A stretch of DNA of 64,000 nucleotides from a virus (Duplodnaviria; Caudoviricetes): the IMG/VR virus record IMGVR_UViG_3300032226_000683, positions 4,568 to 68,567 of that record. The stretch is one strand, 5' to 3'. The position numbers and the translations under genes are program-made. This document shows, piece after piece, positions 6,001 through 47,792 of the stretch. Position 1 is the stretch's first letter; each line of letters starts with the position of its first letter. The notes under the pieces are model-generated. The model ran no database searches and was not told the origin of the DNA. It saw nothing but the letters and a program-made list of their open reading frames with translations.

Positions 6001-9000
6001 TCAAATCCAAGTCTTTTGATCAAGGCATCGGGAGACTCGGTGTCGAAGATACCAAGTCGTCCAAGCGAGAGAAGCTGATCGGGTGTCTCAAACGGAGTTC
6101 CAGAAGCCATCAGTACTCGACCGGCTTTCTGTGAAATCTCATTCATCAGGATCGACCAGGCACGGCTCTTACCTTCTTGGATTGCTTTATGCAGGTTTCG
6201 TCCGGAGTGCTGTTCGTCAAAAATAACAACTGTCTTTGCATCCACTAATGGAAGAATCTTTTCCAAGTACTGCGAGGTGTAAGTGGAGACGACAACTTTT
6301 CCTGGCACATTCTCAATCGGAAGACCGCGACCACTCTCACCCTTACCACCACGAGCCGCAATCGGAACGCCCATCAGTCCGGCATCTTTCTCAATCGAAC
6401 CGCCGATTGTGTTGAGATCCCAGTTCGGGGTAACGGCATCGGGAGCCGTCAAATAAAATACATTAAATCCTTTGTTGAGATAGTATTTGGCTGCCGCCAA
6501 CAACACTCGGGTCTTGCCAGTTCCAGGACCATTAGCCAAGTAAAAAGCTTTATGCTTGGAGCTTTCCATCGTGGTGATGGCCGCCGCCGCATCTTGCTTT
6601 TGCTCTGGAGATAAGAGGCTAGTGGTTTCCGATCCGATCGGATCTAGAACTTTCTCGCTGTAAGGTTTGCCTAGCTGGTTGCGGGATTCGACGAAGGACT
6701 TGGGGATGGGGACGCCACGAGCGCGTTCAGCTCCAGGTCTCCCGACTCCGGTTGCCCCACCTGCAACAGCTCGTCCCACTTCTTCCCGCTTAACGGGAAC
6801 GGTTTCTTGAGAAACTCGCTTTGTGGTGGCAGCACGTTTGGCTTCGATTTCCGCGAGTTTCTGGCGAGCTTCCTCACGTCGATCATCGGCTGTTTTGGCT
6901 TTTGGCTTGGGGGTTGGTTTAGTTGTTGGTTCTTCATATGTTCCTTCCTCGTTGGTGGTAATTCCGCTATCGGCCAGAATCTGGTCGTTGACCTTTAGCA
7001 GATTTGATCGGAAGGTGGCGGCAATATTGTTCTTTGCCGGTCCCTCTTCCATTGTTTGAGAAGCCAGATAAGGCTCCGCAAGTTTGTTTAATTTGTCGAC
7101 ATAGTCATCGGACTGAGCTTTTGAAATGTTTCCGTCATCGAGGGCAGTCTTAAGATTGCTGTCGACCGCTTCAGCCAGTTCAGTGATACCCTCAGGAGAA
7201 AGTTTAGACTCAACTACGGAATCCATATATCCTTCAAAAGCCCGAAGAATATTAACGGAGCGGGTACTTTGGGTTTGTTCGAGCAATGCTTTGGCGGAGG
7301 CAAGCTCTACGTCGTCAAAGAAATCATCGGCCTGTAGTTTTCGGAAGCGTTCGATTGCTGGCTGGATTTGTTTAGCAGTTAGACTTCCCTCTCGGACAAT
7401 TCCTTCTGGTTCCACGACCTCTCGAACTGGAAGAGTTCCAGCTTCCTGATTCTTGCGGTATTCAGCCTGTAACGCAGAAACAAACTTCTGCTGAACCGCC
7501 GGCTTCAATGCATTGATGTTGTCGACAGTAGTTCCAATCTTAGCGGCATCTTGGGCTGTAACTCCTTTACCGGAAGTCACGGAGTCAAACGCGAGTTTCT
7601 CGGCTTCAGTTCCTAGCGATTGCCTAAAAGGTGCTTGAAGATTCTGGGCAAGAATGGAAAGAGCTTCCTGCCTCTGGGCTGGCGAAGGAACGTCAGAAGG
7701 ATTGGCAACTTGGTTATCCACTTCTGTTGCATCAATCTGGTCGAGGGCTTCATTGATCGCTCCGGCGACGGCGGGATTGATTCCTTGTTCCTCGGCCAGC
7801 GTGTCAGCATCGACTGCATTAACACGAAGACCGGGAGTCTCAAGGCTAACGGCCGCGCCAAGACCAACTCCAGCGCGCATCCGAGGAACAGCCCTGCGGA
7901 TAAAGTCCCGAAGTCGGCTATTAAAAATTGTGCTTAAGGAGAGATTATTCTTGCCTTGTCTGAGTTCATATAAAAAGCTGTTGATGGTTGCGGCAGATAC
8001 TTCATCTGCAATATTATATTTTTGATATCCAGCTAGCGACTTGCTCTGCAAATAAGATCTCTTACGGTTTACGTAAGCCATAACGGTTTCTGCTGGGGTC
8101 ATTATGTTGCGACCGTTCTCGTCGATCGCACCAAGACTTTGGAGCAACTCGATTGTCGCGGGATTCTTTAAATTAAATACTGCGCCGAGAGCTTCCTTTG
8201 AATTCTCTCGAGGGTCTGGCTCTAGCTTTTGATACTTCTGGAAAGACTCGCTTTCGGGGTTGTTGATCGGAAGAACGATGTCGGGACGGGCTTCCAATTC
8301 GGGGGCCAGCTTTCCGGTTCTGGCTTCTTTCGTAGCTTCGTTTTCAAATTGCTGAACTAGTTTAGATACCGATTCTTCACCACGCACTAAACGAGCAGCC
8401 TGTCCCTCAACCTGCATTGCCTGAAGCCTTGCAAGCTGTTCCTGCATGGCGACGGCTTCATCTGCCGGAGCTTCCTTTATTTTATTTTCGAGAACATTGA
8501 TTTGATCTTGAAGTCTTTTCGCATTGATCTCTGCTGGTTTCTCTTGCTCAATCAGCTCTTGGCTTTTAGCCAGTTGGCTTTCCAAGGCGACTTCATAATC
8601 GGTTGGGCCGAGATATTTTCTAGCAACTTCTTCGATGGCATCGTCTGTTCCGGCTTTCTCCAACTCGGAATTCATTTGGTCAATCTCGTCGGTCTCAAGA
8701 CCAATCTCTTCCGCACGCAGAATAAACTGATCTTTTAACTCTTGCTTAAATTCAATCGCAGGAATCCCGTTCATCCAATTGCCAGCGTCAGTTTTTACAT
8801 TCGTTACAGAATAGGTTTTTCCGTCTTCGGACAATTCACCAATTACGCGACCCTGACTCTCAAGCCATTGAATCTTCGAAGCATTCTCTGGTGTATTAGA
8901 AAGGTTAATGGTCGTGGCACCTTTCTCAAAAACACCAATCAACTCATTGAGTGCTGAAAGCTTTTCCTCTTCGGTTTCAGGAGCTCTGGTTTCAATCGTT

Positions 9001-10703
9001 GCTGGAATACCAATCTGCCCCTCTGCTTTTGAAATCTCCTGTGTCAGCATGGATTCAACCGATCCTTGCTTCGCGGATTCTACTGCTTCGTCTGCTACCT
9101 TTGTTGTCTCGGGAGTGGTTACCGTATCAAGAGAAGAGCGAACATTGACAGCATCAAAAAGGGACTGGGCTTTTGGAGATGTCAAAGACTCTCGGAGTTG
9201 AGCCATTTGCTCCATCTTTTGTTGGTCATTAAGATTTGGATCAACTTTAATACTTGATACTGTTTGTTCTAAAGATTTTGCAAACCGATCATCTGCCAGT
9301 TTATATATTTTGGCTCGACGATTTGCGATAGACGCTGCCCCTATAACTCCAGGGATTGCCATTCCAAGTCCGATACCACCAGACACGGCCAAGTTTTGGA
9401 GCAAAGGTTCTACGGGATCTTGCCCCCGCAGAACGGCTTCGATTTCTTCAGATGCAGTTTCTCCGAGAGTAGTTCCCACCACTCTGCCCGTGCTACCAAC
9501 CAAAGGGGCCAAAGCAGGAATTTTTGTGGCCAAGGCTTTTGCAGCTGCATGATTGGCTAGGGCATTATCAATCGAGTTTTCTAATTTGTTTCCAGCTCCT
9601 TCGGCTAAACCCAGAACGGCACTCTCGCTGAATATGGATGACAAACGCTGGGGTACGGTTAGATTCCGCGGGTCGCCCTCGAAAGATTGCGATGCCCCGA
9701 TAGTCGCATACGTTGCACCTCTGGAAAGAACGGTTGGAACTTTGATAGCTTGATCTGCAATCTGGCCAGCTTTACCCAATAGCTTTGTGGCGCCGGCGCC
9801 AACTCCGATAAACGAACCCACGGATCCGAGGGCTGCCCCGGCAAGAGTCCCGGTCATGTAATCTTTTTGAATTGTATTGTTGATCGCGTTTGTAAGAGCG
9901 GCCCGACGGGCAACCTGCTCGGGATCGTTTTCGTCTACTATAATATCTCCGATAGATACGAATGGTAGGAAAGCATCACCAGATTGAATCGCAAAGTTTC
10001 GAAGACTAGCCGATCCTAATTTCTTTGATTTGTCACTTTCAAGATCGCGAAAATAATTCTCTGCCATCGGCAGATTCATTCCGAGCTTGGCAGTGAGTGG
10101 CCCCGTACCAAAAGCCATTGCAGGCTTCTCATCCTTAGAAACAATTGATTTTCCGCTGTTTAATTCATCTTCAAAAAAGGGGGCCAACTCCAAAGCTTTT
10201 GCCGCTTTGGCTGGGTCGGTGATTGTCCCAATATAATTTCTAGCCGCAAAGCTTTGTTGCGTTGCTTCCGCCTCTTCATTGGTAATCCCGAGCCCGCCTT
10301 GCAAGTAGGCTCCAATGGTTTTGCCAACACCGAGAAGCGAGAGTTTAGTCAGCTCGCCCCAATCACCTTTTTTCTCTGCGTCAAGAATCTTTTGGCTGGA
10401 CTCAAGCGAATAGTTACGGACGTTGTTCTGAACGTCTTCCCAAGCCTGGGTATTAAATGGAAGTTTCTTTTCCTTAAATCGCGTGGCCAGCCCACCTATA
10501 AGGTCGGTTGATTTCGGATCATCCCTAAGAGCAATTAAATTCTGAGCCTGCGCCAAGTTAGTGGGCGGAGCTGAAAATAGGGAGTTAATTTCCTCCTCAG
10601 GGGTAGTTCCGGAAGGAGCAAACAAAGCATCAATAGCTTGTTGCTCACCCTCGGGGAGACTAGCTAGATCAAGCTCTGTCTCGGGGTTAAATGGATCCGC
10701 CAT
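1..10703 (-). CDS. Giant (>3,500 aa, runs off the left edge) polyvalent virion/ejection protein with sigma-like, SF2 helicase (strawberry-notch type), zincin-like and ART-like segments
   Basis: ATG at 10703 (MADPFNPETELDLASL...). The segments I translated are open, and the track lists no stop-terminated minus ORF in this frame. Motifs: GPGTGKT 6530-6510, DEQH 6218-6207, EETIH 4877-4863, YHGT 3647-3636. Last gene of the structural module. Confidence 0.9.
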   Translation of the reverse strand, partial: MADPFNPETELDLASLPEGEQQAIDALFAPSGTTPEEEINSLFSAPPTNLAQAQNLIALRDDPKSTDLIGGLATRFKEKKLPFNTQAWEDVQNNVRNYSLESSQKILDAEKKGDWGELTKLSLLGVGKTIGAYLQGGLGITNEEAEATQQSFAARNYIGTITDPAKAAKALELAPFFEDELNSGKSIVSKDEKPAMAFGTGPLTAKLGMNLPMAENYFRDLESDKSKKLGSASLRNFAIQSGDAFLPFVSIGDIIVDENDPEQVARRAALTNAINNTIQKDYMTGTLAGAALGSVGSFIGVGAGATKLLGKAGQIADQAIKVPTVLSRGATYATIGASQSFEGDPRNLTVPQRLSSIFSESAVLGLAEGAGNKLENSIDNALANHAAAKALATKIPALAPLVGSTGRVVGTTLGETASEEIEAVLRGQDPVEPLLQNLAVSGGIGLGMAIPGVIGAASIANRRAKIYKLADDRFAKSLEQTVSSIKVDPNLNDQQKMEQMAQLRESLTSPKAQSLFDAVNVRSSLDTVTTPETTKVADEAVESAKQGSVESMLTQEISKAEGQIGIPATIETRAPETEEEKLSALNELIGVFEKGATTINLSNTPENASKIQWLESQGRVIGELSEDGKTYSVTNVKTDAGNWMNGIPAIEFKQELKDQFILRAEEIGLETDEIDQMNSELEKAGTDDAIEEVARKYLGPTDYEVALESQLAKSQELIEQEKPAEINAKRLQDQINVLENKIKEAPADEAVAMQEQLARLQAMQVEGQAARLVRGEESVSKLVQQFENEATKEARTGKLAPELEARPDIVLPINNPESESFQKYQKLEPDPRENSKEALGAVFNLKNPATIELLQSLGAIDENGRNIMTPAETVMAYVNRKRSYLQSKSLAGYQKYNIADEVSAATINSFLYELRQGKNNLSLSTIFNSRLRDFIRRAVPRMRAGVGLGAAVSLETPGLRVNAVDADTLAEEQGINPAVAGAINEALDQIDATEVDNQVANPSDVPSPAQRQEALSILAQNLQAPFRQSLGTEAEKLAFDSVTSGKGVTAQDAAKIGTTVDNINALKPAVQQKFVSALQAEYRKNQEAGTLPVREVVEPEGIVREGSLTAKQIQPAIERFRKLQADDFFDDVELASAKALLEQTQSTRSVNILRAFEGYMDSVVESKLSPEGITELAEAVDSNLKTALDDGNISKAQSDDYVDKLNKLAEPYLASQTMEEGPAKNNIAATFRSNLLKVNDQILADSGITTNEEGTYEEPTTKPTPKPKAKTADDRREEARQKLAEIEAKRAATTKRVSQETVPVKREEVGRAVAGGATGVGRPGAERARGVPIPKSFVESRNQLGKPYSEKVLDPIGSETTSLLSPEQKQDAAAAITTMESSKHKAFYLANGPGTGKTRVLLAAAKYYLNKGFNVFYLTAPDAVTPNWDLNTIGGSIEKDAGLMGVPIAARGGKGESGRGLPIENVPGKVVVSTYTSQYLEKILPLVDAKTVVIFDEQHSGRNLHKAIQEGKSRAWSILMNEISQKAGRVLMASGTPFETPDQLLSLGRLGIFDTESPDALIKRLGFEKQYLRGGKKSYWTLSPGVTEAEMQDRLEAYLDGLVKNGILRSRSLKLDGVNVEFQDVPLDSAIIKQLEDIKNMYGGAQNTDIASLRKLVAAQKRALEEYKVDAAAKRAIQSIRQGRKPVIYVGFVSETNARGETVDPTSAAVEAAILRLAPDLKIARMYTGSDQTKEQALAAFNENAADVLIATKEMGGTGIELDDKFGDKPRDMIIMSPPVSAIQAVQLIYRVWRTDSASRPNLIFLESKAEVDQQNIDRMRAKLRLLDATTGAGFEGLKAEVVAPVKSTVEATPEQVSTTEEILKSALGKDYNNNVITFRDAKGQAHNYNVKIDPNFTHPMAVVVGSDNDSDVIVINPARLEEGKNKLSPDAYKSYITQALLEETIHIETLRYYRELGLDPIEELTAIGDSLSQASRLAIGRLYYSSLGSDITNSDTQAKIKALANDSFFVAMEGIRQLSQLKLTGGITEQVNSVNASDIARATQRLKDILKSENKSVLARLGVWFDSMATVVKRGLGLAPNAKDRLVMRQSIEDAISTLRKTSKEFVQAGEAPAGPIPAPGTSPTAPRAATVFDSYDLRIYRMIENHLEGRTEGVLGVTVADDLFKTVGVEEWLDALDISRRRGIITADERDLFRSATQAVMDGGRASLPAIANKALELAENMEEAGRSLPVAAFVATSAPAEVTSNEQSFEVQPTQQKYRVKIPGNIAVATTASSEAKATANAVIRLFENQEVVNYNGQRYSSPGALIAALRDAGYNKFSKVIAPAPAPEMKTKVSLSNLLNLEKNNELAYHGTSLDQITSLLGGIRPETNFSPDFNGQAFGGGVVLVYPKNQLPLDKKSYQNDLVLTEGSATQPIAAMLDVANFEGSEARRSYSDVMEDIANLPKEDSGIAMDLYTALDLGDRIKVAQIRDDIRGNPAAIERQIRDMRIKEFKGKYYLPSGEQILSLPKAQPKPNAEVINRLAVELSKASDEATPGVSQEEAINNAVAAVPNALPVFTYELSDSGQVTNVKMVRAGAPMAIPAPEIRESRAIKNIVTQFVDVLPEGKIKDRLLDAWYYQSIPREQQFADAKSYIATNGVQNSLNAFLSGNIKSSLPLQGAIGFELANALGAKAKTDLYAREQLAEVMLLLSRKYGTEPGRTVDLWNALGELSNNPEAMKMYISRQIDSSIRGRLTGFAEEESEISSGLVDSTRRAVDKLTTDKKTKSTIEKIAKLVELNKKQATVAELEAAVAEYVGSEQALADGSAFLGADLAAAPEVEGSDADGIRLNPEQTGALSRMILEIIQRSENPSVTAASEDQIKSLLMLTPALRDAKNQENVRRKLDLYFDAALTNALEIFSAQALGEARAREGIQPPATRGEAIRRVIDAKAKAKDQAPVAIPTEATSRLEALAEASAEALQKQAARLQEEPKKKDQLEEFAARIRRLIAQRTKEQGGLQPTYTPEPKPTEAEVLRDRIEKYPDVMEFIDNVRDSLKEVYSEEELAGLEPFIDEAFGRPFTVSSLKQAVRSLESIGGPQTNVRGLIRSSKGDIMDFENKMGALLTQNTTLDEAQKKEVTDFLREGLTELISNERKLELERIKKRFEAKKERKTRKMRSALDRLIEATNLGVLTDSEVFAQMHSQLGLPELREEERKKLNKLIEDLPLYPVGMIRNKKISEMYQYVKLVSPQVWGELLVNYQTSNLLAGVGTIGINAWSSSMSNQLNAALLAAVGAMKGVRGDKARAKGYIDAAKALNSSILVGEKPALNAAANVFFNGDYSNIQDALTQELGGVNIWEAIVKQGEDYRAGKPGAVQPELPVNVFGEEYRIPLDSKYLSSKYGALAPFIFFGRAMAAGDAINKISSRKMYEIAEATNIAIAQGLQTNDEIETEVARLLNQSPEARKRAEAKAASEAKEFNLTPEQQSLRVEEILEQGRPDEESVKNLTEKAKTFAAQSTYTNNFEGWFGLLADGLTSISAKAWPLRLFIKFLKTGSSLANEVLNFLPAISTIRLYRGSAAMLKDTK

Positions 10704-21028: not shown

Positions 21029-22915
21029 TTATACGTAACGCACTCCTGTGTTTATAAACGGAACGGCAGAATAAGTAAAGGTCTCGTGAGTTGTTTGATT
21101 ATAGGCAGTAGCCGTAGTGTAGGTAGGGATAAGGGCTGCTGCGCTAAGATCAGTTTTACCGAAAATTGATGAGTATATTCCGGCCGATCCCGGATTAATA
21201 GCCTCTAACGAAGCCCCGGCAAAGCTTGCTGCTGGGGTAAAAGACATATAATAAAAACCCACATTTAAAGTTGTGTTTGCAACACTTAGGGTAATTAAAG
21301 TGCTTGCGGCAGTTCCGGAATTCACAATTCCACCGACTACAAATGTTCCTGGAAGTCCTGTGGAGGCAACATTCCAAATCGCAATATGTACCGATATATT
21401 TGCGCTGGGAGGAGTAGACGATGTTTTAAATAAAAGCTCATCGATTTGCCCAGAAACTGGAATGTAAAGCAGGCCAAACCGTCTTCCGTTAATTGTTGGT
21501 GTAGTAGTCGACCCGGCCCCTCCCACTGAATAAACCCCAAGAATATTCGGAGTTTGAAATTTCGGAAGAATAGGCATTACCTCACTAGCTATGGCTACTG
21601 TGCCGGAAGTATCGGGAAGAGTAATAGTTCTAGCGGCGGTTGCCGATCCAGTTAGAGTGGTTCTAGTTGCGGAAACTCCGAGTTCAATTGAGCCGGTCCC
21701 ACGGGTATTAATAGACCCACCGCCATCATAAGTTGTTAAAGAACCACCAGGATTTGTTCCACCATAAGCAACAATGCTTCCACCTATTGATGGATAACTA
21801 GGGCCGGAAGTAGGTGCTATTGTCCCACCTCGTAAATCAATACTTCCGCCTGGGCAACTTCTTCCAGAAGTGTTAATACTTCCGCCAGCGGAACCTATAT
21901 AATCGTCAATACCAGGATTTACTGCGACTGATCCACTTCGGGTATCAATACTCCCACCGCTAGAAGCAACGCCTTTTGTCGTGATGCTTCCACCTGGTGA
22001 AGTGTCATATGTATTACCGCCGCGTGTATCAATTGACCCACCGGCAGATGAATACCCCTTTGTCACAATGGAGCCGCCATTACAGGCAAGTCGACCATCA
22101 ATATCACCGCCAGACGTGTCGACCCCTCCGCCAAAGTTTCCGGGCCCACCCGAGCCACCTCTTGTAACAATAGACCCACCAGCAGAAGAGCCTGATCCAG
22201 GTCCGCCTCTTCCTCCGCCTGTATTTATTGTCCCGCCGGGTGAGTCAGATGCTCCCCCGGATGTGTCAATTAACCCGCCACTTGCGTTAAGCTGGTCGCT
22301 TGCAGATGTGTTTATTGACCCACCTATGCCACCGAAGTCTCCTTTTGTATTAATATTTCCACCATTAGGTCCATAGCTAGAACCTCTTGTGTCTATGTAC
22401 CCACCTGCTCCATCGCTTCCGCTTGTATTAATATATCCACCATTAGAACCATTGTTAGTTGCCGATGTATCTATGTACCCACCTGATTGACCGCTTGCAT
22501 CCCCGCTTGTGTTAATATATCCAGCAGATCCAGCTGAATCAGTCATGGTTATAGTTCCACCATTTTCAAAAACGAGTGGGGACACTGGTGTAGTATCGGC
22601 TAGCTGGATATAAGACGCTTCCAAAATTTTCGAACCAGCCCCAGAATAAATCCATCTCTTTCCGTCTGTAGTTGCAACAATACTGCCCTCTCGAATCAAA
22701 GCCTGTTGTGCGGTAGTTAAATTGGCAATACCGCCTGAACTTACGATTACGTCATTTGTCTCTTCGAGAGCTGTAACGCGAGTGTCTAGAGCTGTAACGG
22801 AAGTGTCGATAGAATCAATTTCGGCCTGAATGGTGGCTGGAGGAGGAGTAGTATTTGCCCCGGCTGTTCCGCAATCGCAATCTCGGGCGTAGTTATCGGG
22901 ATTAGGAAAACTCAT
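21029..22915 (-). CDS. Second tail fibre / receptor-binding protein with glycine-rich GGxIxTxG repeats
   Basis: 628 aa; short coiled coil, many GGxIxT repeats, then a beta-rich C-terminal domain paralogous to 46157..46849. Confidence 0.75.
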   Translation of the reverse strand: MSFPNPDNYARDCDCGTAGANTTPPPATIQAEIDSIDTSVTALDTRVTALEETNDVIVSSGGIANLTTAQQALIREGSIVATTDGKRWIYSGAGSKILEASYIQLADTTPVSPLVFENGGTITMTDSAGSAGYINTSGDASGQSGGYIDTSATNNGSNGGYINTSGSDGAGGYIDTRGSSYGPNGGNINTKGDFGGIGGSINTSASDQLNASGGLIDTSGGASDSPGGTINTGGGRGGPGSGSSAGGSIVTRGGSGGPGNFGGGVDTSGGDIDGRLACNGGSIVTKGYSSAGGSIDTRGGNTYDTSPGGSITTKGVASSGGSIDTRSGSVAVNPGIDDYIGSAGGSINTSGRSCPGGSIDLRGGTIAPTSGPSYPSIGGSIVAYGGTNPGGSLTTYDGGGSINTRGTGSIELGVSATRTTLTGSATAARTITLPDTSGTVAIASEVMPILPKFQTPNILGVYSVGGAGSTTTPTINGRRFGLLYIPVSGQIDELLFKTSSTPPSANISVHIAIWNVASTGLPGTFVVGGIVNSGTAASTLITLSVANTTLNVGFYYMSFTPAASFAGASLEAINPGSAGIYSSIFGKTDLSAAALIPTYTTATAYNQTTHETFTYSAVPFINTGVRYV

Positions 22916-22957: not shown

Positions 22958-23350
22958 CTACTTGAGAGCTGACCAGTTATCCCGCCATTTACAGTTTGGT
23001 TCAAGATAAATGGATTTGGTGCGGGGAAGCTTTTCTCTAGGTATTACAAACAAAGCGTCCAAGGTTGTATTCAAAAATATAAAAGCGTCGCAATCCCCCT
23101 TGGTGTATAGCCTCTTCTGCATATGCCCAAATCCGGGCCCGCGGAGGGCCAAAAACTTTAACTTTCTCCTGCGACAGTCTTCACCTCCAATGGTGGTTTT
23201 AACTTGGACGCGTACCATCTTTCCTCTCCAATCGGTTACTAAGTCGTATCCATCGTCATAGATGGGAAGGCTTACGAGAAAGCCTTGCTCCATCAATCTG
23301 GTGGAAACCTTTTGTACGCCTATTGCTCCTAGTCTAATGTTATTACTCAT
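22958..23350 (-). CDS. PD-(D/E)XK endonuclease (PDDEXK_5-like)
   Basis: GFLVSLPIYDDGYDLV...RVQVKT motif. Confidence 0.75.
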   Translation of the reverse strand: MSNNIRLGAIGVQKVSTRLMEQGFLVSLPIYDDGYDLVTDWRGKMVRVQVKTTIGGEDCRRRKLKFLALRGPGFGHMQKRLYTKGDCDAFIFLNTTLDALFVIPREKLPRTKSIYLEPNCKWRDNWSALK

Positions 23351-24221: not shown

Positions 24222-24614
24222 TTAAAAGAGTTTAAGAAAGGGAAAGAAATTACGCAAGGCCAAAAATGCGGGTAGAAGAAGCATCCCACCGATACCAATC
24301 AAACGCCACTTCCAAAGCATTCCAACGGCTTTGCTGTATTTGGCCTCAAGATACTCGAGCCTTTCGGCCATCTCGGAACGTTCTTTGAAATTCTTATCGA
24401 CCTGAGACTGAAGCTTTAGGATCTGGTCTTTTGTATTGTCCAGCTCGTCGGCTACGGGTTTACAAGCAGGGATTGAACGGGCAATCGACTGAGCCTTTAA
24501 GACTGAATCAGTTGTCGCCTGAAGGGTGAGAGAGCCGGAAGAAGTCGTTCGTGTTGTGGAGGCGCAACTAACTAAAAAAACACTAAACAAAGAAATTACA
24601 AGGCTACGAATCAT
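24222..24614 (-). CDS. Putative unimolecular spanin
   Basis: Lipobox LVSC after a signal peptide, coiled-coil middle, C-terminal TM; in the lysis cassette. Confidence 0.6.
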   Translation of the reverse strand: MIRSLVISLFSVFLVSCASTTRTTSSGSLTLQATTDSVLKAQSIARSIPACKPVADELDNTKDQILKLQSQVDKNFKERSEMAERLEYLEAKYSKAVGMLWKWRLIGIGGMLLLPAFLALRNFFPFLKLF

Positions 24615-24916
24615 TATCCAGCTTTATAAGCCATTACTTTTCCGGAAGCTAATGTAAATCCGGTAAAAGGACCATAAAGAGTAACATTTGCTGGGATTGT
24701 CAAAGCATAGAAATTAGCTGCATTTGGTGTGAAACTAGAATTCAAAGAACTTAAAGATGAAAATTGAGTGCTAGCCAAAGTGAGAATAGACGCATAATTT
24801 GCAGTCATTGCGGTAGTGTCGCCTACGTAATCGAAACCACGCTGGCCAAGAGCGACAAGACCAGCATCTGATGGAGTTACGCTTGTCGTTAGATTTTCGT
24901 CAAAAAAAGTTGGCAT
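24614..24916 (-). CDS. Small hypothetical (probably virion) protein
   Basis: 100 aa, beta-rich; AGGAG SD and TTGACA-16-CACAAT promoter upstream. Confidence 0.6.
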   Translation of the reverse strand: MPTFFDENLTTSVTPSDAGLVALGQRGFDYVGDTTAMTANYASILTLASTQFSSLSSLNSSFTPNAANFYALTIPANVTLYGPFTGFTLASGKVMAYKAG

Positions 24917-24951
24917 ATGGTTCTCCTATTGTGTGGTCTTATTTTTAATTG

Positions 24952-25167
24952 TCAACTATGTTTGCCAAAAATCTTTGACCAAAAGAATTCAGCAAAGGTT
25001 GAAATCATAAATGTCATGACTGCCACGACTCCATAACCCATGTGCATATGCTTCTCAACCTTACCGATTCGTTGGTCGTGTTTATCTCGGTCTTCGAGCA
25101 AGGAATCAAGCTTCTCGTCCATGCGGGCGGTACGCTCAACAAGGGTAAGTAGATGATCATTTTCCAT
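24952..25167 (-). CDS. Coiled-coil plus single-TM protein (XhlA/holin-like)
   Basis: 71 aa; ARMDEKLDSLLE coiled coil followed by a TM segment. Confidence 0.55.
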   Translation of the reverse strand: MENDHLLTLVERTARMDEKLDSLLEDRDKHDQRIGKVEKHMHMGYGVVAVMTFMISTFAEFFWSKIFGKHS

Positions 25168-25702: not shown

Positions 25703-26005
25703 TTAAGCATTCAGATTACGCAACAAGGTTAAAATAGTATTAACCTTTGCGGTAACGGAGGCCAAACCATTTTTAACTGCGGTCATGTCGTCTGTGAGCG
25801 ACGTAGTCGCATTCGCAGCCGGAGCAGTGATTGCAGCAATAGTGTTGGCAGCCGTACCACCTGTTGAGTCAGTGATTGCCGTCAGACTCGTTGTGGCTGA
25901 AGAGCCGGTCAAAGTGGATGTCCACTCTGGGCCGTTATTCAATACACCACGAACCTGAGCCGCCAGGACGTTATCCTGAGTACGCACTTGAAGAGGGGAA
26001 CTCAT
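25703..26005 (-). CDS. Head decoration / head-fibre protein
   Basis: Directly downstream of the major capsid gene; T/A-rich; ends ASVTAKVNTILTLLRN, like head-fibre trimerisation helices. Confidence 0.65.
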   Translation of the reverse strand: MSSPLQVRTQDNVLAAQVRGVLNNGPEWTSTLTGSSATTSLTAITDSTGGTAANTIAAITAPAANATTSLTDDMTAVKNGLASVTAKVNTILTLLRNLNA

Positions 26006-26025: not shown

Positions 26026-27429
26026 TTAGCTAACGTAGTCAAGGCTGATGGTAGGCCGAGTATGCATTACGACGTAGCCGTACTGCGGGAACACGGGCCG
26101 AGCACCGCTCGCACAAACTCCGCGAAAATATCCGACATTACCGTCCGGATTATTTTGGCGATCCAAGATGTTAACCCATTTGAACTCACCACGGTAGTTC
26201 TGAGGATTGAATGCCATCTTGTTGTTGGTGCTGATAGGAGACGGAACCACAGAGCGGAATACATCTTGATGGAAGATGTAGCTGATCTCGTAGGCCGCGG
26301 TCTCGTAGGCGGGGTTGATGTTGTACGCCGTACCCTTGGTCGTGACTTCCTTACGGAAAGGATACACACGGAACAAGTAGGCAGGGCTCGTACCAGCCAC
26401 GGCAAAGCGCGGAGGATACGGATCGATGGAGTGGTAGAAACCACCGTAAGAACGCTCAATACCGAGAGGCGTGAGCAATTCATTCGGCTTTGCGTACCGG
26501 TAATCCTGGCGAATGTCAGCATTCAACCGAATCAGGTTTTCGCTGGTTTCGGCACCGCAGATCAACATGAACACCGGAGCGCCGTTTTCACGGCCCATGG
26601 CGTTAGTTCCCGCGCCGTCGCGGATAAGTTTCATGTAGAGCCGCTTGAGGATGCCTTGAGTCAACTGGCTCTGAGGGAGCGCAGTAGATGTGATTGCACC
26701 GCCACCTACTGCCGACACCGAGCCATTAACAACGGCATTATAGACAGCTTTAGCGTCACCAACGGTTGTAGTGCCAGAGGTGGGATTAGCAATAGCACCA
26801 ACTCCGGGATAAACGAGGTTATTTCCCTCGATGACCACCGAGCGGGTGTACAGATTCCGGTAGCGATCTTGCCAAACCAAGGAGGTCGACTCAGTGAGGA
26901 CATCCATGATGTTGGAGAGCTGTTCTTTGCGTTTAACGGCAAAGCGCAAATCTTCCAAGGAAATATCGGGGGAATCAACCGAGGCCCATTCCAGCGAGTA
27001 CTGACGGAGCTTTTGTCCGAAAGTAACGCCAGTAAGAGCTACGGGCAGCGCATTACCAGAGGTAGAGGCTGAATCAACCGGATCTCCGAATGATGCTAGA
27101 GTGCTGGTAACCTGAGTATAAGGGTTGAAGCCCTGATAGTCCTGGGTAACCTGATTTGAACCGAGTGTTCGCCATCCTTGTCCTGCGTCTTGTCTGATAT
27201 CGTTTACGGCATAGCCAACTGCGGTATCACCGGCAGTAGCCAAAGCACGGGAGGGGTAGAAACGTTCGAAAGTGACCGAGCTGATCACATCGCCCATTTC
27301 CTCGGGGAACTGTTCCTGCTTGGTCAGTTTGAGCCAAGCAGAGGTATCGATCGTCCGGCGATAAATCTCCGGTCCGATACGACCCGCTTCTTTAACCAGC
27401 AACTGCTGGATATTATAAGTCGTAGACAT
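26026..27429 (-). CDS. Major capsid protein
   Basis: 467 aa after portal and scaffold; strong SD (GAAAGGA); followed by decoration gene and hairpin. Confidence 0.8.
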   Translation of the reverse strand: MSTTYNIQQLLVKEAGRIGPEIYRRTIDTSAWLKLTKQEQFPEEMGDVISSVTFERFYPSRALATAGDTAVGYAVNDIRQDAGQGWRTLGSNQVTQDYQGFNPYTQVTSTLASFGDPVDSASTSGNALPVALTGVTFGQKLRQYSLEWASVDSPDISLEDLRFAVKRKEQLSNIMDVLTESTSLVWQDRYRNLYTRSVVIEGNNLVYPGVGAIANPTSGTTTVGDAKAVYNAVVNGSVSAVGGGAITSTALPQSQLTQGILKRLYMKLIRDGAGTNAMGRENGAPVFMLICGAETSENLIRLNADIRQDYRYAKPNELLTPLGIERSYGGFYHSIDPYPPRFAVAGTSPAYLFRVYPFRKEVTTKGTAYNINPAYETAAYEISYIFHQDVFRSVVPSPISTNNKMAFNPQNYRGEFKWVNILDRQNNPDGNVGYFRGVCASGARPVFPQYGYVVMHTRPTISLDYVS

Positions 27430-44110: not shown

Positions 44111-44252
44111 GACGTTTCTCGGAGCGGTAGCCGCGTTGCTTGGAGGTGCAATATGTATATTCTTAGCCGTGGTTTGGTACGAATGTTTTTCGTACTTTCG
44201 GTCGTTATTTCGCCGCTTTCCAAAGCGGAAAACCAAGTCCTCCCGTCGGTAG
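44091..44252 (+). CDS. Small membrane protein
   Basis: Single TM followed by a basic tail. Confidence 0.45.
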   Translation: MQDTLLKTFLGAVAALLGGAICIFLAVVWYECFSYFRSLFRRFPKRKTKSSRR

Positions 44253-45100
44253 TTCGCATTCAGGTTATTACCCCTAACGGGACATTCCGCGGGACGGGAT
44301 TTGCCGTAGAGGGTGGTGTCATAACCGCGGCTCACATTGTGGATAAATCAAACGAAGTAAGTGTGCTTTGCGACGACGGAGACGACACGGTTGCTTTTGA
44401 AGGGGATGTGGTACGAAAAGACACCCTGCTGGATATAGCTCTTATCAAGGTCAAGAATGATTTTGAAAAAGCAATCAACTTGCCACCCGTTAAATTTGAG
44501 ACAGCTTTCCCCGCAAAACCTGGAACGCCTGTTTACGCCATCGGCAATTCTTTGGGATTTACACGCTCTATCTCCGCGGGGATTGTTTCAGCCTCCGGCA
44601 AGAAGTCTGGAGAGCGGTTCCTATATTCCGACGTTCTGGTGCGGAAGGGTAATTCGGGCGGACCGCTAATCAATTTTAAGGGAGAAGTTATCGGTATGAC
44701 TTTAGGGACAATCGACATGTCTCCTGCCGGGGAGCTAAAGACTAAGGATCCTGCTCCTGAGTTTGCATACTGCTTATCGGCGGCTGATATAGTGGAATTC
44801 CTGGAAGCCGAAGAAACTCACCAAAAGGTGGATGGGTTCCTGGGGGTAATAGGTAAACCTGTGACAACTGGGTATAACCAGCCAGGGTGCGATCAAGGGC
44901 TTCAAATAACCCGTGTTGTACGCTCCTGTGGGCTTAATGTAGGCGATATTGTGTTTATGCTGGCCGATACCCCTATTACATCACAACGCGACATGATAAG
45001 GGTTATACGAGCATTGCAGCCTGGTACTATGGCAAGCGCAGACATTATTAGAAATGCACAGTTCCAAACAGTTGAAGTATCTATAACTAAAAGTCCTTAA
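44153..45100 (+). CDS. HtrA/DegS-like trypsin serine protease with PDZ domain
   Basis: GTGF, TAAH, DIAL and GNSGGP triad motifs; FLGV PDZ start. Confidence 0.9.
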   Translation: MYILSRGLVRMFFVLSVVISPLSKAENQVLPSVVRIQVITPNGTFRGTGFAVEGGVITAAHIVDKSNEVSVLCDDGDDTVAFEGDVVRKDTLLDIALIKVKNDFEKAINLPPVKFETAFPAKPGTPVYAIGNSLGFTRSISAGIVSASGKKSGERFLYSDVLVRKGNSGGPLINFKGEVIGMTLGTIDMSPAGELKTKDPAPEFAYCLSAADIVEFLEAEETHQKVDGFLGVIGKPVTTGYNQPGCDQGLQITRVVRSCGLNVGDIVFMLADTPITSQRDMIRVIRALQPGTMASADIIRNAQFQTVEVSITKSP

Positions 45101-45101
45101 C

Positions 45102-45665
45102 ATGAAATTTGATACTAGAACCGAACTGGTTAGAAACCTGGTTAGATCGGGTGGAGTGATCGCGGAGGTCGGAGTCCTCAACGGAGAGTTTTCAAAGGAA
45201 CTAATCGAGATCCTCAATCCTTCCAGGATCTACATGATCGACCGATTCGAGGGACAATGCTTCTCGGGCGACCGGGATGGAAACAACGGCAAGATCCATG
45301 ATCTAGATAGGGCTTACAGCAGCCTTATGGAATATGCTAAGTTAAATCCAACGGTAACCATTTTGAAGGGGGATAGCTCTACGTTGCTAGGTACTTTAGA
45401 GCCTGATTCACTGGACATGATCTACCTAGATGGTGATCACGAATACCAAGGATGCAAAAAGGACATAATTGCGTCCTATAGGCTCTTAAAAGACGGGGGA
45501 TGGCTTATGGGTCACGACTACGCTATCAACCTGGCCAAAGCCCTAAATCACTATGTTTTTGGCGTAAAGAAGGCTATCGACGAGTTCTGTCAGGAATACA
45601 ACCAAACCATTCATGCTTTTGGAGCTGATGGTATGGTATCCTTTGCTATTAAGATCTCCAAGTAA
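45102..45665 (+). CDS. Class I SAM methyltransferase (Methyltransf_24-like)
   Basis: AEVGVLNGEFS, YLDGDHEY, GGWLMGHDY. Confidence 0.85.
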   Translation: MKFDTRTELVRNLVRSGGVIAEVGVLNGEFSKELIEILNPSRIYMIDRFEGQCFSGDRDGNNGKIHDLDRAYSSLMEYAKLNPTVTILKGDSSTLLGTLEPDSLDMIYLDGDHEYQGCKKDIIASYRLLKDGGWLMGHDYAINLAKALNHYVFGVKKAIDEFCQEYNQTIHAFGADGMVSFAIKISK

Positions 45666-45749
45666 TTGATATAGAGGTGGAAGCACTTCTGCTTTCAGCA
45701 AAGAGACTTACGTAAGGTACATGTACGTTTTGTAAGTCCTTGATACAGT

Positions 45750-46072
45750 GATAGGGTGGGGGTATGAAACAGTGGTGCAATTGATCTATGTGTTTGTGTG
45801 TCAAGGATTCATAGCTTCTAGGGTGGTAGGGTGGGGGGTGTAGGGGTGGTTTTGAACTCGTTGTTCCTACAGCTTTGTGTGTGCGGCGTGTGTGTGCAAA
45901 CAACCGGAACGAGTTGGGATACCCCCACCCAGTGGGACCACCCCCACCCTCTCTTTCTTTATATTTATATATATTAATAATAAACATATACTTACACAAG
46001 GACCCAAGGTTCAAAATTTGGGTGGGGGTACCTATTTTTGACCCCCCACCCTGGGCGACACCCCCACCCTAA
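45750..46072. repeat. GGGTGGGGG / CCCCCACCC iteron cluster flanking an AT-rich tract; candidate replication origin
   Basis: Copies near 45753, 45828, 45921, 45940, 46020, 46041 and 46060 in both orientations; AT-rich tract about 45955-45990. Confidence 0.6.
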
Positions 46073-46089
46073 CTGTAGCCCTTTGGGGA

Positions 46090-46123
46090 TAAAACAAGGG
46101 CCAGTCCATTGCTGAACTGGCCC
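46090..46123 (-). terminator. Intrinsic terminator of 46157..46849
   Basis: GGGCCAGT-loop-ACTGGCCC followed by TTGTTTTAT on the minus strand. Confidence 0.7.
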
Positions 46124-46156
46124 TAGACCGTTTAACCGGGTTTTAAAAGACTTTGG

Positions 46157-46849
46157 TTAGGCGTATTCAACAGTCATGTTAACCAGATTCACGTGTGCCT
46201 CGACAAAGGTTTCATGAGTCTTTTGATCGTATGATGTCGCGGTAGTATATCTGAGAATATTTGGCCTTGCGGCTGGCTCCGATTTTCCAAAAATACTCCC
46301 ATAAATTCCGTCAACGGTGGCATTGAGAGATGTAATATTTCCAGAAACCATCGAAGTTGCGCTTGTAAACGACATATAGTAGAAGCCAGGACCAACATCA
46401 ATATTTGAAGCCAACGCAGTTTCGATTACAGTATTCGCCAATGTACCAGTAGTCGTCAGAGCTTCACCAAGAAAATCAGCTGGCTTTCCATCCGCACCCA
46501 CTGCCCAGAGAGCTAATTGTACATTATGAGAAGAAGACGGCGCAGTCGATGCGGTTTTAAACGCGAATTTGTTTAAGCTTCCAATTGCCGGGAGATAGAT
46601 TAATGAGAATCTCCGGTCTCCAGCTACTGGCCCCGTGGTGCTACCGTCCGCACCAGGACAGAAGACACCGACCGGGTTCGAAGGTTTATATTGCGGCAAG
46701 ATCAATGCTATGGATCCGGCACCAATAGGAGCCGCTCCAATATCCTGCGGCCTCATGTCGTTGATAATCGTGTCGTCAAATACACGTCTGATTTGAGCCG
46801 CTAAAACCCGATCTACAGTTCCTACGCTTACTGAAAAGTTGTCAGCCAT
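46157..46849 (-). CDS. Stand-alone chimeric protein: decoration-type N-terminus plus tail-fibre tip domain
   Basis: N-terminus matches 25703..26005; remainder matches the C-terminus of 21029..22915; own promoter (TTGACT-16-TAGAGT) and terminator. Confidence 0.8.
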   Translation of the reverse strand: MADNFSVSVGTVDRVLAAQIRRVFDDTIINDMRPQDIGAAPIGAGSIALILPQYKPSNPVGVFCPGADGSTTGPVAGDRRFSLIYLPAIGSLNKFAFKTASTAPSSSHNVQLALWAVGADGKPADFLGEALTTTGTLANTVIETALASNIDVGPGFYYMSFTSATSMVSGNITSLNATVDGIYGSIFGKSEPAARPNILRYTTATSYDQKTHETFVEAHVNLVNMTVEYA

Positions 46850-47031
46850 CTCATTACTCTATGAATTCATTTTATGAAGTCAACCCTTTTTCCATATCAA
46901 ACAGTCTTTATCTAGATCAATAGATTTGTTCATGCAGAACTGGTAGAACTTCCAGGACCAAGGATCCCAACCGAACCAAGGAAGCCTAGATGCAATGTCT
47001 CCTAACCAGTAGAACAAGTAGCAAAGGGCTC

Positions 47032-47736
47032 TCATGACTTCGCCTTAACCAATGAAACCATTTCCTCGTATTTATCTGCCATTGTTTTCTGGAAACCGCA
47101 AAAATGAAATAATTGCTTGGATAAGTCAAATGGACTGTACCCAGCAAATAATTGCGACCTATCAGATATATCGTAACTTTTGCTCAAATCAAAATCCGTC
47201 GCAAGACACATACCGTAATTAAAGGAAGTCTGTTCCAACATAGCGTCTTCTATTAGGTTGTGTTGTATATGCGGCTCAAATAGCTTTCTAATGCTACCGG
47301 TAAATTTTATATGCCTGAACCCAAATGTACCAGCATTTATCCCTTTTAGCATAAAAAACTTTAATCTATCTGAGTTTGGCGCCCGCTTGTAATTAAACCA
47401 TGAGCCACTCATACTTTCTCTTGGCTCGTATATAGTAGTGAATTCTTTGTTCGGATCGATTAGGTTCATCGGGTTGCCGAAGCAAACAATGTCTGGATCC
47501 AGAAACAAGTAGTAGTCATACCCTTTGGGAATAAGTTTTGAGTATTTGAGGAAACCACCGTATACGTAGTCCCGCGGATCTACGATAACTTTGTGGCTAA
47601 ATCCTTCCGGGCCCGACTTGTTGGATATCACACAGAAGTCGACGCCGTCCGGTAAGGTCATGTTCGCAGCCAAAAGATTGATACACTTGTGCGAGTCATC
47701 GTTAAAATCAGTTGCAGTGTAGACCAGAACTTTCAC
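47032..47736 (-). CDS. Glycosyltransferase (GT-A fold)
   Basis: YLFLDPDI DxD motif, INAG, EQ, FHFCG; promoter TTGACT-16-TACAAT 7 nt upstream. Confidence 0.7.
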   Translation of the reverse strand: MKVLVYTATDFNDDSHKCINLLAANMTLPDGVDFCVISNKSGPEGFSHKVIVDPRDYVYGGFLKYSKLIPKGYDYYLFLDPDIVCFGNPMNLIDPNKEFTTIYEPRESMSGSWFNYKRAPNSDRLKFFMLKGINAGTFGFRHIKFTGSIRKLFEPHIQHNLIEDAMLEQTSFNYGMCLATDFDLSKSYDISDRSQLFAGYSPFDLSKQLFHFCGFQKTMADKYEEMVSLVKAKS

Positions 47737-47792
47737 CCGGGCGATTGTATTTAACCCTTTACAAAAGTCAAAGTATTTGAGACACTCTGCGG

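Follow-up and report, generated by a model that had tools for sequence, protein, structure and literature searches.

Does a phage protein that joins a tail-fibre tip to a motif of a capsid-adjacent protein act on the head of the virion, on its tail, or outside the virion altogether? The question is raised by ORF230, a minus-strand open reading frame (ORF) in the 64,000-nucleotide stretch of DNA analysed here (the window), which covers bases 4568-68567 of a 68,567-bp virus record (IMGVR_UViG_3300032226_000683) that has direct terminal repeats and is rated complete. We favour, with a probability of roughly one half, the reading that ORF230 is an optional, cassette-swappable adhesin docked on the capsid. 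A capsid location is favoured because the motif partner, p100, is encoded next to the gene of the major capsid protein (MCP), as well as being head-fibre-like, because the best solved analogue is bound to a capsid, because the N-terminal module is found only on short proteins, and because the lysis cassette of relatives has the gene on its head side. We infer this location, together with glycan binding, a trimeric state and a role in adsorption, from the comparisons set out below.

ORF230 and its motif partner p100

The proteins on which the argument turns are encoded as follows.

46157..46849, minus strand: ORF230, a modular protein of 230 amino acids (aa) with an ATG start, made up of N-module, linker and beta-sandwich head
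46715..46849, minus strand: N-module of ORF230, residues 1-45 (MADNFSVSVGTVDRVLAAQIRRVFDDTIINDMRPQDIGAAPIGAG), with helices predicted at residues 4-23, 26-31 and 34-37
46160..46678, minus strand: beta-sandwich head of ORF230, residues 58-230, resembling a carbohydrate-binding module (CBM); a paralogue of the fibre tip, with pLDDT mostly >90
25703..26005, minus strand: p100, 100 aa, with the motif at its N-terminus and a head-fibre-like C-terminal module at residues 39-97 (alignments, profiles)
25934..25993, minus strand: common motif in p100, residues 5-24 (LQVRTQDNVLAAQVRGVLNN), found by BLASTP, motif scan and profile hidden Markov model (HMM)
26026..27429, minus strand: MCP, HK97-type and N4-like (AlphaFold model and Foldseek)
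21029..22915, minus strand: tail fibre of 628 aa, with its tip domain at residues 449-628 (21032..21571)

Joined in ORF230 are an N-terminal tag and a domain of the fibre-tip type; this chimera, proposed in a preliminary description of the locus, is borne out by the alignments with p100 and with the fibre. The ATG start is backed by homologues that open with MADDF or MSDTF, and the N-module stops at a DIGAA boundary, past which the homologues diverge. An AlphaFold2 model built on a 42-row alignment (pLDDT 89.3) has N-terminal helices, a linker and a sandwich at residues 58-230, with residues 1-57 standing before the sandwich.

The likeness of the two N-termini had been put at 10 of 15 identical residues, and this holds: VGTVDRVLAAQIRRV of ORF230 and VRTQDNVLAAQVRGV of p100 agree by eye at 10/15 positions, and BLASTP aligns residues 7-26 of ORF230 with residues 5-24 of p100 (10/20 identical, E 5e-4 in a single comparison). 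The common core reads V-x-T-x-D-x-V-L-A-A-Q, and in a six-frame scan of the window the strict motif occurs in ORF230 and p100 alone. Because the two were singled out among about 100 ORFs, a pairwise E of 5e-4 is marginal, and a profile test was made. When an HMM of 12 distinct N-modules was run against the 244 window ORFs of at least 60 aa, p100 was the sole other match (E 2.7e-5), the third-ranked ORF having an E of 0.34. The same HMM matches the p100 homologue in 17 of 19 related loci and 43 of 62 p100-family proteins; it matches neither gp45 of phage B2, which is discussed below, nor the p100 relatives that have other N-termini. A 'VLAA' string in B2 gp45 was considered as a sign of homology and dropped, since the N-module profile has no match to gp45. 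Given the profile E value and the recurrence in loci and in the p100 family, the match between ORF230 and p100 goes beyond chance.

That the match is nonetheless fortuitous, and ORF230 a functionless, decaying remnant of fibre recombination, is scarcely credible and the least probable of the readings considered. The shortness of the common core and a promoter without support above shuffled sequences would fit such a remnant. The profile match, however, is significant and recurs across divergent homologues, the frame is open with a conserved start codon, the model is confident, residues of the module are invariant across 12 sequences, and each of the six records found through the module holds one module gene.

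The partner protein p100 points towards the capsid. Its gene directly follows the MCP gene in all 19 loci, over MCP identities of 44-98%. In 61 p100 homologues the N-terminal motif and the C-terminal helix are kept and the middle is variable. Some relatives carry different N-terminal segments on the same C-terminal module, as would be expected if the N-terminus were a capsid-specific anchor. Residues 39-97 are 63% identical to the protein P0084 (E 2e-12), which is itself 31% identical over 97 aa to B2 gp45 (E 3e-4). The latter is annotated as 'head fiber' in the B2 record and is a solved, homotrimeric capsid decoration protein of 99 aa from an N4-like Shigella phage, according to the part of its description used here (PDB 9d82; PMC11654681). 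A p100 profile run against 177,635 PDB sequences gave four matches, with B2 gp45 second (E 0.81) and crAss001 head-fibre proteins fourth (E 3.8), both non-significant. A search of a protein atlas with p100 yielded only a rank-15 lead to a 'head fiber' (score 0.90), which Pfam did not confirm. PF11133 matches B2 gp45 with 40.4 bits, through residues 55-99, which align with the phi29 head-fibre profile at its distal C-terminal end. In phi29 gp8.5, the source as far as it bears on this point assigns the N-terminal 110 residues to a capsid-binding base and the C-terminal part to the fibre (PMC6542822). By analogy with gp8.5, the p100 N-terminus with the common motif is likely to be a capsid-proximal anchor.

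Both p100 and B2 gp45 are of about 100 aa, belong to N4-like phages, show collinear weak similarity and end in an LN-x-L-type C-terminal helix. They differ in their N-terminal 30 residues, those of p100 being unrelated to those of gp45, and in gene order: the p100 gene always adjoins that of the MCP, but in B2 the MCP gene and the gp45 gene are not neighbours.

The phage itself belongs to poorly annotated territory. Most structural proteins of the window have no family in Pfam or PHROGs searches, which gave zero matches for ORF230, the 628-aa fibre, p100 and the MCP, and tblastn against 50,697 phage records gave none for ORF230, the MCP, p100 or P0084. The MCP has 467 aa, and for its AlphaFold2 model, of moderate quality, the nearest solved structures by Foldseek are the capsids of N4, Moo19, DEV and B2, all of them N4-like podophages (E from 2.8e-4). 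Other window genes include an rIIA-like gene, a family A DNA polymerase and a very long frame:

3-10703, minus strand: open frame of >3,567 aa that runs off the window start (ORF list)

This frame has no PHROG match and is about the size of N4-like virion RNA polymerases, B2 gp30 being 11.2 kb in the B2 record. On the grounds of the MCP matches, the long frame, the rIIA-like gene, the family A DNA polymerase and the terminal repeats of its genome of about 68 kb, the phage looks like a distant, uncultured N4-like phage. Among the 332 homologues of the MCP family, P0167-P0225 included, lengths range from 386 to 516 aa through a central insertion, and in two relatives that position is taken by an endosialidase beta-barrel (PF12195). 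Exchangeable domains thus seem to be a feature of the capsid surface as well.

Portability of the module and relations of the heads

An exhaustive phmmer search with ORF230 against 1.84 billion representatives returned 41 matches, four of which (P0028, P0035, P0037 and P0041, of 100-192 aa) align only with residues 1 to about 50. An alignment-based scan of viral contigs confirmed eight loci among 79 pattern matches; with ORF230 alone as query it confirmed zero relatives, and the protein atlas searched with module residues 1-50 gave nothing usable. The N-module is present on 12 distinct proteins of 100-230 aa, which have about 45 N-terminal residues in common, with F5, V9, T11, D13, R14, V15, L16, A17, A18, Q19, F24 and I37 invariant, and which part company directly past the DIGAA-like boundary into at least eight unrelated C-terminal domains. 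In the phmmer search the module occurs on short proteins only (up to 230 aa) and never on long fibres. The suggestion of a portable tag, with the proposed search for the motif fused to other domains, has thus stood as regards portability; the tag measures about 45 aa rather than the 15 aa first supposed.

A second family in relatives also combines a constant start with variable cargo. Its members open with MPKLGLGL (MKLGLGL in L109), to which unrelated domains of 123-820 aa are joined (L100:6358-6729, L101:6379-8184, L102:7007-7981, L103:6975-9314, L106:6382-8844, L107:7018-7824, L108:6762-7595 and L109:6387-7040). Their genes directly follow the homologue of 24614..24916, part of the family matches PHROGs of unknown function or annotated as 'virion structural protein', and no protein of this type is encoded within the window.

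The constancy of the N-module bears on the idea that the N-terminal motif common to ORF230 and p100 serves for targeting or processing, as a prohead-loading, protease or chaperone site would, rather than as an external anchor. The motif stands at the extreme N-terminus of both ORF230 and p100, and N-terminal capsid-targeting sequences are known from T4 internal proteins. An adhesin head of the CBM or C1q type makes little sense inside a capsid, however, the p100 module resembles external head-fibre or decoration proteins, and 45 aa of conserved helices are unlike a short cleavable peptide, all of which leaves such a signal very improbable.

The head of ORF230 and the fibre tip belong to one domain family. 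BLASTP aligns residues 50-229 of ORF230 with residues 449-627 of the fibre at 77/180 identical positions (43%, E 1e-43). On the DNA level the identity is 47.4%, blastn finds no match, and 50 of the 77 identical residues are encoded by different codons, so that the many synonymous differences noted at the outset are real. Only 49 residues of ORF230 precede the tip domain, and the long repeat-containing shaft is missing. The tip domain also terminates long fibres of 628, 555, 876, 482 and 336 aa, and it recurs in a larger group of proteins that are about 230 aa long and have another N-terminus, MGFFGGGG.... Members of the latter are found in unrelated phages (L024:7980-8681, L027:7636-8340, L028:7950-8636 and L029:3032-3730), and in every case the protein that follows is a conserved one, about 100-115 aa long (NLDG..F.DTRT.EEA.EENL); in L024 the tip protein lies between the major head protein (phrog_1357) and a tail fibre gene.

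A tree of the tip domain was built from 27 of the 41 phmmer matches. The 14 others were left out: fragments (P0018, P0020, P0021, P0025 and P0026), the four module-only proteins named above, long repeat proteins (P0034 and P0036) and weak or partial matches (P0038-P0040). ORF230, the window fibre, P0003, P0004 and P0006 form a clade with support of 99/98, within which ORF230 is not the sister of its own fibre (89/69) but groups weakly with fibres of other phages; branches are 0.65-0.8 changes per column long. The tips of the own fibre and of P0003 and P0004 are 41-43% identical to the ORF230 head. These three are fibres of 555-876 aa with repeat shafts, whereas ORF230 has a 45-aa module and a linker in place of the shaft. 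A recent intragenomic duplication of the tip was rejected on the tree placement, the 47.4% DNA identity and the lack of a blastn match. In view of the tree placement and the long branches, the head is drawn from a pool of fibre tips; the 'copy of the tip' of the preliminary description is right about the domain family and wrong if taken as a recent duplicate of the phage's own fibre.

A comparable relation, with a different tip domain, exists in a relative.

L007:9977-10390: N-module protein (sequence comparison)
L007:13836-14753: the 305-aa fibre of the same locus (sequence comparison)

Residues 46-135 of this N-module protein, its head, are 48% identical to the C-terminus of the 305-aa fibre. 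The same 90-aa tip also terminates the fibres of L005 and L008. Such paralogy of head and own fibre was found in two of five whole genomes tested (the window and G003, as against G001, G002 and G004). Elsewhere the cargo is of another kind; that of P0035 weakly resembles C1q and has a match (E 1e-5) to a PHROG annotated as 'tail protein'.

These relations speak for the main rival, a serious and plausible reading to which we give about half the weight of the favoured one: that ORF230 is a secondary receptor-binding protein (RBP) on the tail, whose N-terminal peptide plugs into the primary fibre, an adaptor or a neck protein. The motif in p100 would then point to a docking partner that the two proteins share outside the capsid shell, or to an oligomerisation helix present in both. 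Besides the fibre-tip head, the second head related to its own fibre tip in L007 and the 'tail protein' match of P0035, this reading can draw on the occurrence of the fold in solved tail tips and in minor tail or collagen-like fibres, on the combination of a short conserved N-terminus with a hypervariable C-terminus, which is the classic pattern of receptor-binding proteins, and on the homologous tip proteins of about 230 aa that follow tail-like genes in L028 and L029. Short conserved N-terminal docking peptides are known for branched podophage fibres. It is opposed by the constant MCP-adjacency of p100 and the link of p100 to a solved capsid decoration protein, by the absence of the module from long fibres, by the capsid-bound state of the best solved analogue of the whole architecture, and by the gene's position in relatives, which is to the head side of the lysis cassette. 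Furthermore, no fibre of the window has a recognised branching or adaptor domain, though its fibres have few family matches, generic at best. Pfam gave zero matches for the 628-, 706- and 643-aa proteins of the window, PHROGs gave zero for the 628-aa fibre, and the 706- and 643-aa proteins matched only generic tail-fibre or virion-structural families in PHROGs, with no branching or docking domain.

Insertion, position and accessory status of the gene

In the window, the ORF230 gene is part of a discrete insertion. The relevant features are these.

46096..47042, no strand: insertion cassette of 947 bp, from blastn breakpoints; the same site in relatives G002 and G003 is without the cassette
46097..46124, minus strand: intrinsic-terminator-like hairpin, a 12-bp stem followed by TGTTTT (z -3.2)
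46856..46883, minus strand: promoter-like site TTGACT-16-TAGAGT, a 9/12 match, 6 nt upstream of the ATG
46880..47035, minus strand: Trp-rich ORF of 51 aa in the insertion, from the ORF list, which may not be a gene
47032..47736, minus strand: protein of 234 aa of no known family, upstream of ORF230 on the same strand
24917..24951, no strand: 'position A', empty in the window, a 35-bp spacer between a 71-aa gene (24952..25167) and a 100-aa gene (24614..24916)

Window positions 46095 and 47043 both map to position 2749 of L022 by blastn, which marks a clean insertion, and no flanking repeats were found. The insertion comprises the terminator, ORF230, the promoter-like site and the 51-aa ORF. The hairpin lies just downstream of ORF230 and coincides with the left edge of the insertion. 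The promoter-like site is not evidence of a promoter, as the scan found three such sites against 6.2 +/- 3.0 in shuffled sequences; a better one lies at 47771..47744, by the 234-aa gene. The moron-like unit of the preliminary description has therefore gained support as a discrete 947-bp insertion with its own terminator, but its promoter-like site shows no excess over shuffles.

The position of the module gene varies. Relatives keep the 234-aa gene whether or not they carry ORF230: the module gene follows it on the minus strand within the replication region of the window, L003 and L004, and in G002 and G003 the 234-aa gene stands alone, without a module gene. The structural module holds the module gene in L005/L006, L007, L008, L009 and L010, where the genes run MCP, p100, three small genes, module gene, homologue of 24614..24916, lysis genes and fibres; the lysis cassette thus separates it from the fibre genes. 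This structural position is occupied in 6 of the 19 loci fetched through p100. Each of the six records found through the module has one module gene, and none of five further records found through p100 has any, three of these five being 96-100% complete. Because its position varies, because there is one per record, and because it is absent from near-complete relatives, the ORF230 gene is accessory and mobile within the genome.

An accessory gene of this kind could also act outside the virion, as a free decoy that masks receptors or glycans (superinfection exclusion, or less loss of progeny on debris) or as a factor in fibre-tip assembly. In the window the gene does lie in the replication or early region, on the opposite strand and in its own cassette, its head is paralogous to the fibre tip, and it is dispensable in relatives. 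We nevertheless regard this as improbable, since the gene is inside the structural module in 6/19 related loci and since a 45-aa module strictly conserved across unrelated heads argues for docking to a conserved structure. Reading of the sequence reveals no signal peptide or membrane segment, the helices of the model are soluble, and the head matches the own fibre in only two of the five whole genomes.

The surroundings of the insertion have features of their own. The intergenic region 45670-46100, between converging genes and bordering the insertion, is rich in GGGTGGGGG / CCCCCACCC motifs around an AT-rich palindrome (45959-45980) and is 83-88% conserved in G002 and G003; it may be an origin or a regulatory region. 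The neighbours of ORF230, unusual ones for a phage replication region, are a trypsin-like protease with a PDZ domain (44153..45100), a Methyltransf_24/TylF-like methyltransferase (45102..45665) and the 234-aa protein, in which a D-x-D-like 'LDPD' string is visible by eye. A similar methyltransferase-like N-terminus is found near the portal gene in L024 and L027. Further away, between the CHAP endolysin and the fibre genes, lies a PD-(D/E)XK endonuclease gene (22958-23350, minus strand; PF11645, E 3.8e-13), which is kept in all relatives that reach that far.

Probable docking site and comparison with known systems

The best solved match of the ORF230 model is chain Z of 9jwb (Foldseek E 2.2e-7, TM 0.64/0.72). 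In VIA, the two superpose with Z 19.5 and rmsd 8.7 over 192/201 residues (22-230 of the model and 2-202 of the chain). The matches that follow are the Douge central fibre gp20 (Z 13.4), the tail tip of Bxb1 (12.7), a baseplate protein of phi812 (10.6) and CBMs (about 10). A profile search against PDB sequences, taken to E 10, had no match. Chain Z has 202 aa, the length by which it is identified as gp25 of cyanophage A4. In the part of the A4 report that concerns it, gp25 is an auxiliary cement protein present as 20 trimers on the capsid threefold axes, each subunit consisting of a CBM plus an anchor at the N-terminus on the MCP N-arm and A-domain, and the authors consider that the CBM might bind host receptors (PMC12002296). 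Like gp25, the ORF230 model has a CBM-type beta-sandwich and a short N-terminal part before it, in a protein of about 200 aa. In BFVD the fold of the head occurs in long collagen-like or minor tail proteins and also in proteins of 190-230 aa, including gp25 of A-4L. As far as the model goes, the head fold by itself does not tell head from tail, and the whole architecture is closest to a capsid-bound protein. The proposed docking of the tag on the capsid is strengthened by this analogy, since gp25 combines a capsid-bound N-terminal anchor with a CBM.

On the favoured reading, the N-module of about 45 residues would dock ORF230 on the outside of an N4-like capsid, on the MCP or together with p100, in an arrangement like that of A4 gp25 and of head fibres with a capsid-binding N-terminal base. 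The beta-sandwich head would bind a host-surface glycan and so provide a reversible, multivalent first contact beside the tail fibres. Specificity would be altered through exchange of heads at the DIGAA boundary, and the whole gene would move as a cassette, being present in the structural module, inserted in the replication region, or absent. Competition of ORF230 with p100 for capsid sites, as suggested earlier, is speculation. A wider proposal, that one short N-terminal motif is a general capsid-display tag in this N4-like group, borne by p100 and by optional swappable heads (fibre-tip CBM, C1q-like and others), is put forward tentatively.

Several observations weigh against a capsid location. 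An HMM built from five N-modules, instead of 12, missed p100 in the genome of the window itself and gave a weak match to it in 2/5 relatives, and the core common to ORF230 and p100 extends over only about 18 residues, the rest of the 45-aa module not being in p100. The DIGAA-type linker, the fibre-tip heads and the 'tail protein' PHROG head also suit a tail location, and tail tips (Douge gp20, Bxb1, phi812) use the fold just as much, as does the phage's own fibre. The likeness to gp25 is structural only (BLASTP without a match; hhalign E 0.004 at 8% probability), and the MCP model is of low confidence (pLDDT 56.8). As for p100, direct comparison with B2 gp45 gives weak values (hhalign E 0.0057 at 6.5% probability; BLASTP E 2.9), the connection runs through one bridging sequence, P0084, and PF11133 has no match to p100 or its 20 aligned relatives. 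The earlier view of p100 as a putative capsid decoration protein is strengthened by the MCP-adjacency in 19/19 loci and by the bridge to gp45.

Should the module dock on the capsid, it would constitute a natural modular capsid display, with one anchor and many host-binding domains from the tail-fibre pool, and single-phage cases such as A4 gp25 and T4 Hoc would be extended to a recombining gene family. The 45-aa module would then be a sequence handle for head-borne adhesins in metagenomes and a candidate tag for phage display or engineering. If the motif is indeed a capsid-display tag, the capsid would serve adsorption as a second organelle, with a specificity exchanged separately from that of the tail, and the 45-aa module could serve as a natural tag to display foreign domains on such capsids. 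If docking is on the tail instead, the module would represent a new type of anchor for secondary RBPs in N4-like phages, which would be useful for host-range prediction. Either way, an annotation is gained for ORF230 and p100, both of which are without a Pfam or PHROGs family match.

Known systems resemble ORF230 in different respects. In what the literature on phage decoration proteins, head fibres and A4 offers in the parts used here, no N-terminal tag that joins a head-fibre protein to swappable receptor-binding heads was found. N4 gp17 is encoded far from the structural genes. Together with T4 Hoc and T5 pb10 it is an Ig-like, dispensable capsid-surface protein with a proposed adhesion role, and the source, in the part concerned, describes no shared portable N-terminal tag for these three (PMC11768535). 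Their fold is Ig-like, that of ORF230 a jelly-roll CBM, and none of them is among its best 50 structural matches.

On the tail side, the closest counterparts are the anchor-branch secondary RBPs, as in KP34-like Klebsiella podophages and in the N4-like phage G7C (gp63.1/gp66), in which a short N-terminal peptide docks on another fibre. Their genes may lie away from the primary fibre gene, and they usually carry depolymerase or esterase domains. A short conserved N-terminus and an exchangeable C-terminal domain are common to these proteins and ORF230. They dock on a tail fibre, however, whereas ORF230 has a small CBM-like head and, as motif partner, the MCP-adjacent, head-fibre-like p100.

On the capsid side stands A4 gp25, which is alike in its size of about 200 aa and in the order of a short N-terminal extension followed by a CBM-type sandwich. 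Its gene lies away from the capsid gene, beside a fibre gene. Its N-terminal anchor is an extended arm, whereas ORF230 has three predicted helices and 21 extra N-terminal residues. A tip copy on the head was rejected as a trait common to both phages, gp25 not being a sequence paralogue of the A4 fibre gp24. The part of the A4 report used here does not present gp25 as a swappable family. The capsid location of gp25 is solved and that of ORF230 is probable by comparison with it at best; judged on these sources as far as they go, A4 gp25 is the nearest precedent for ORF230.

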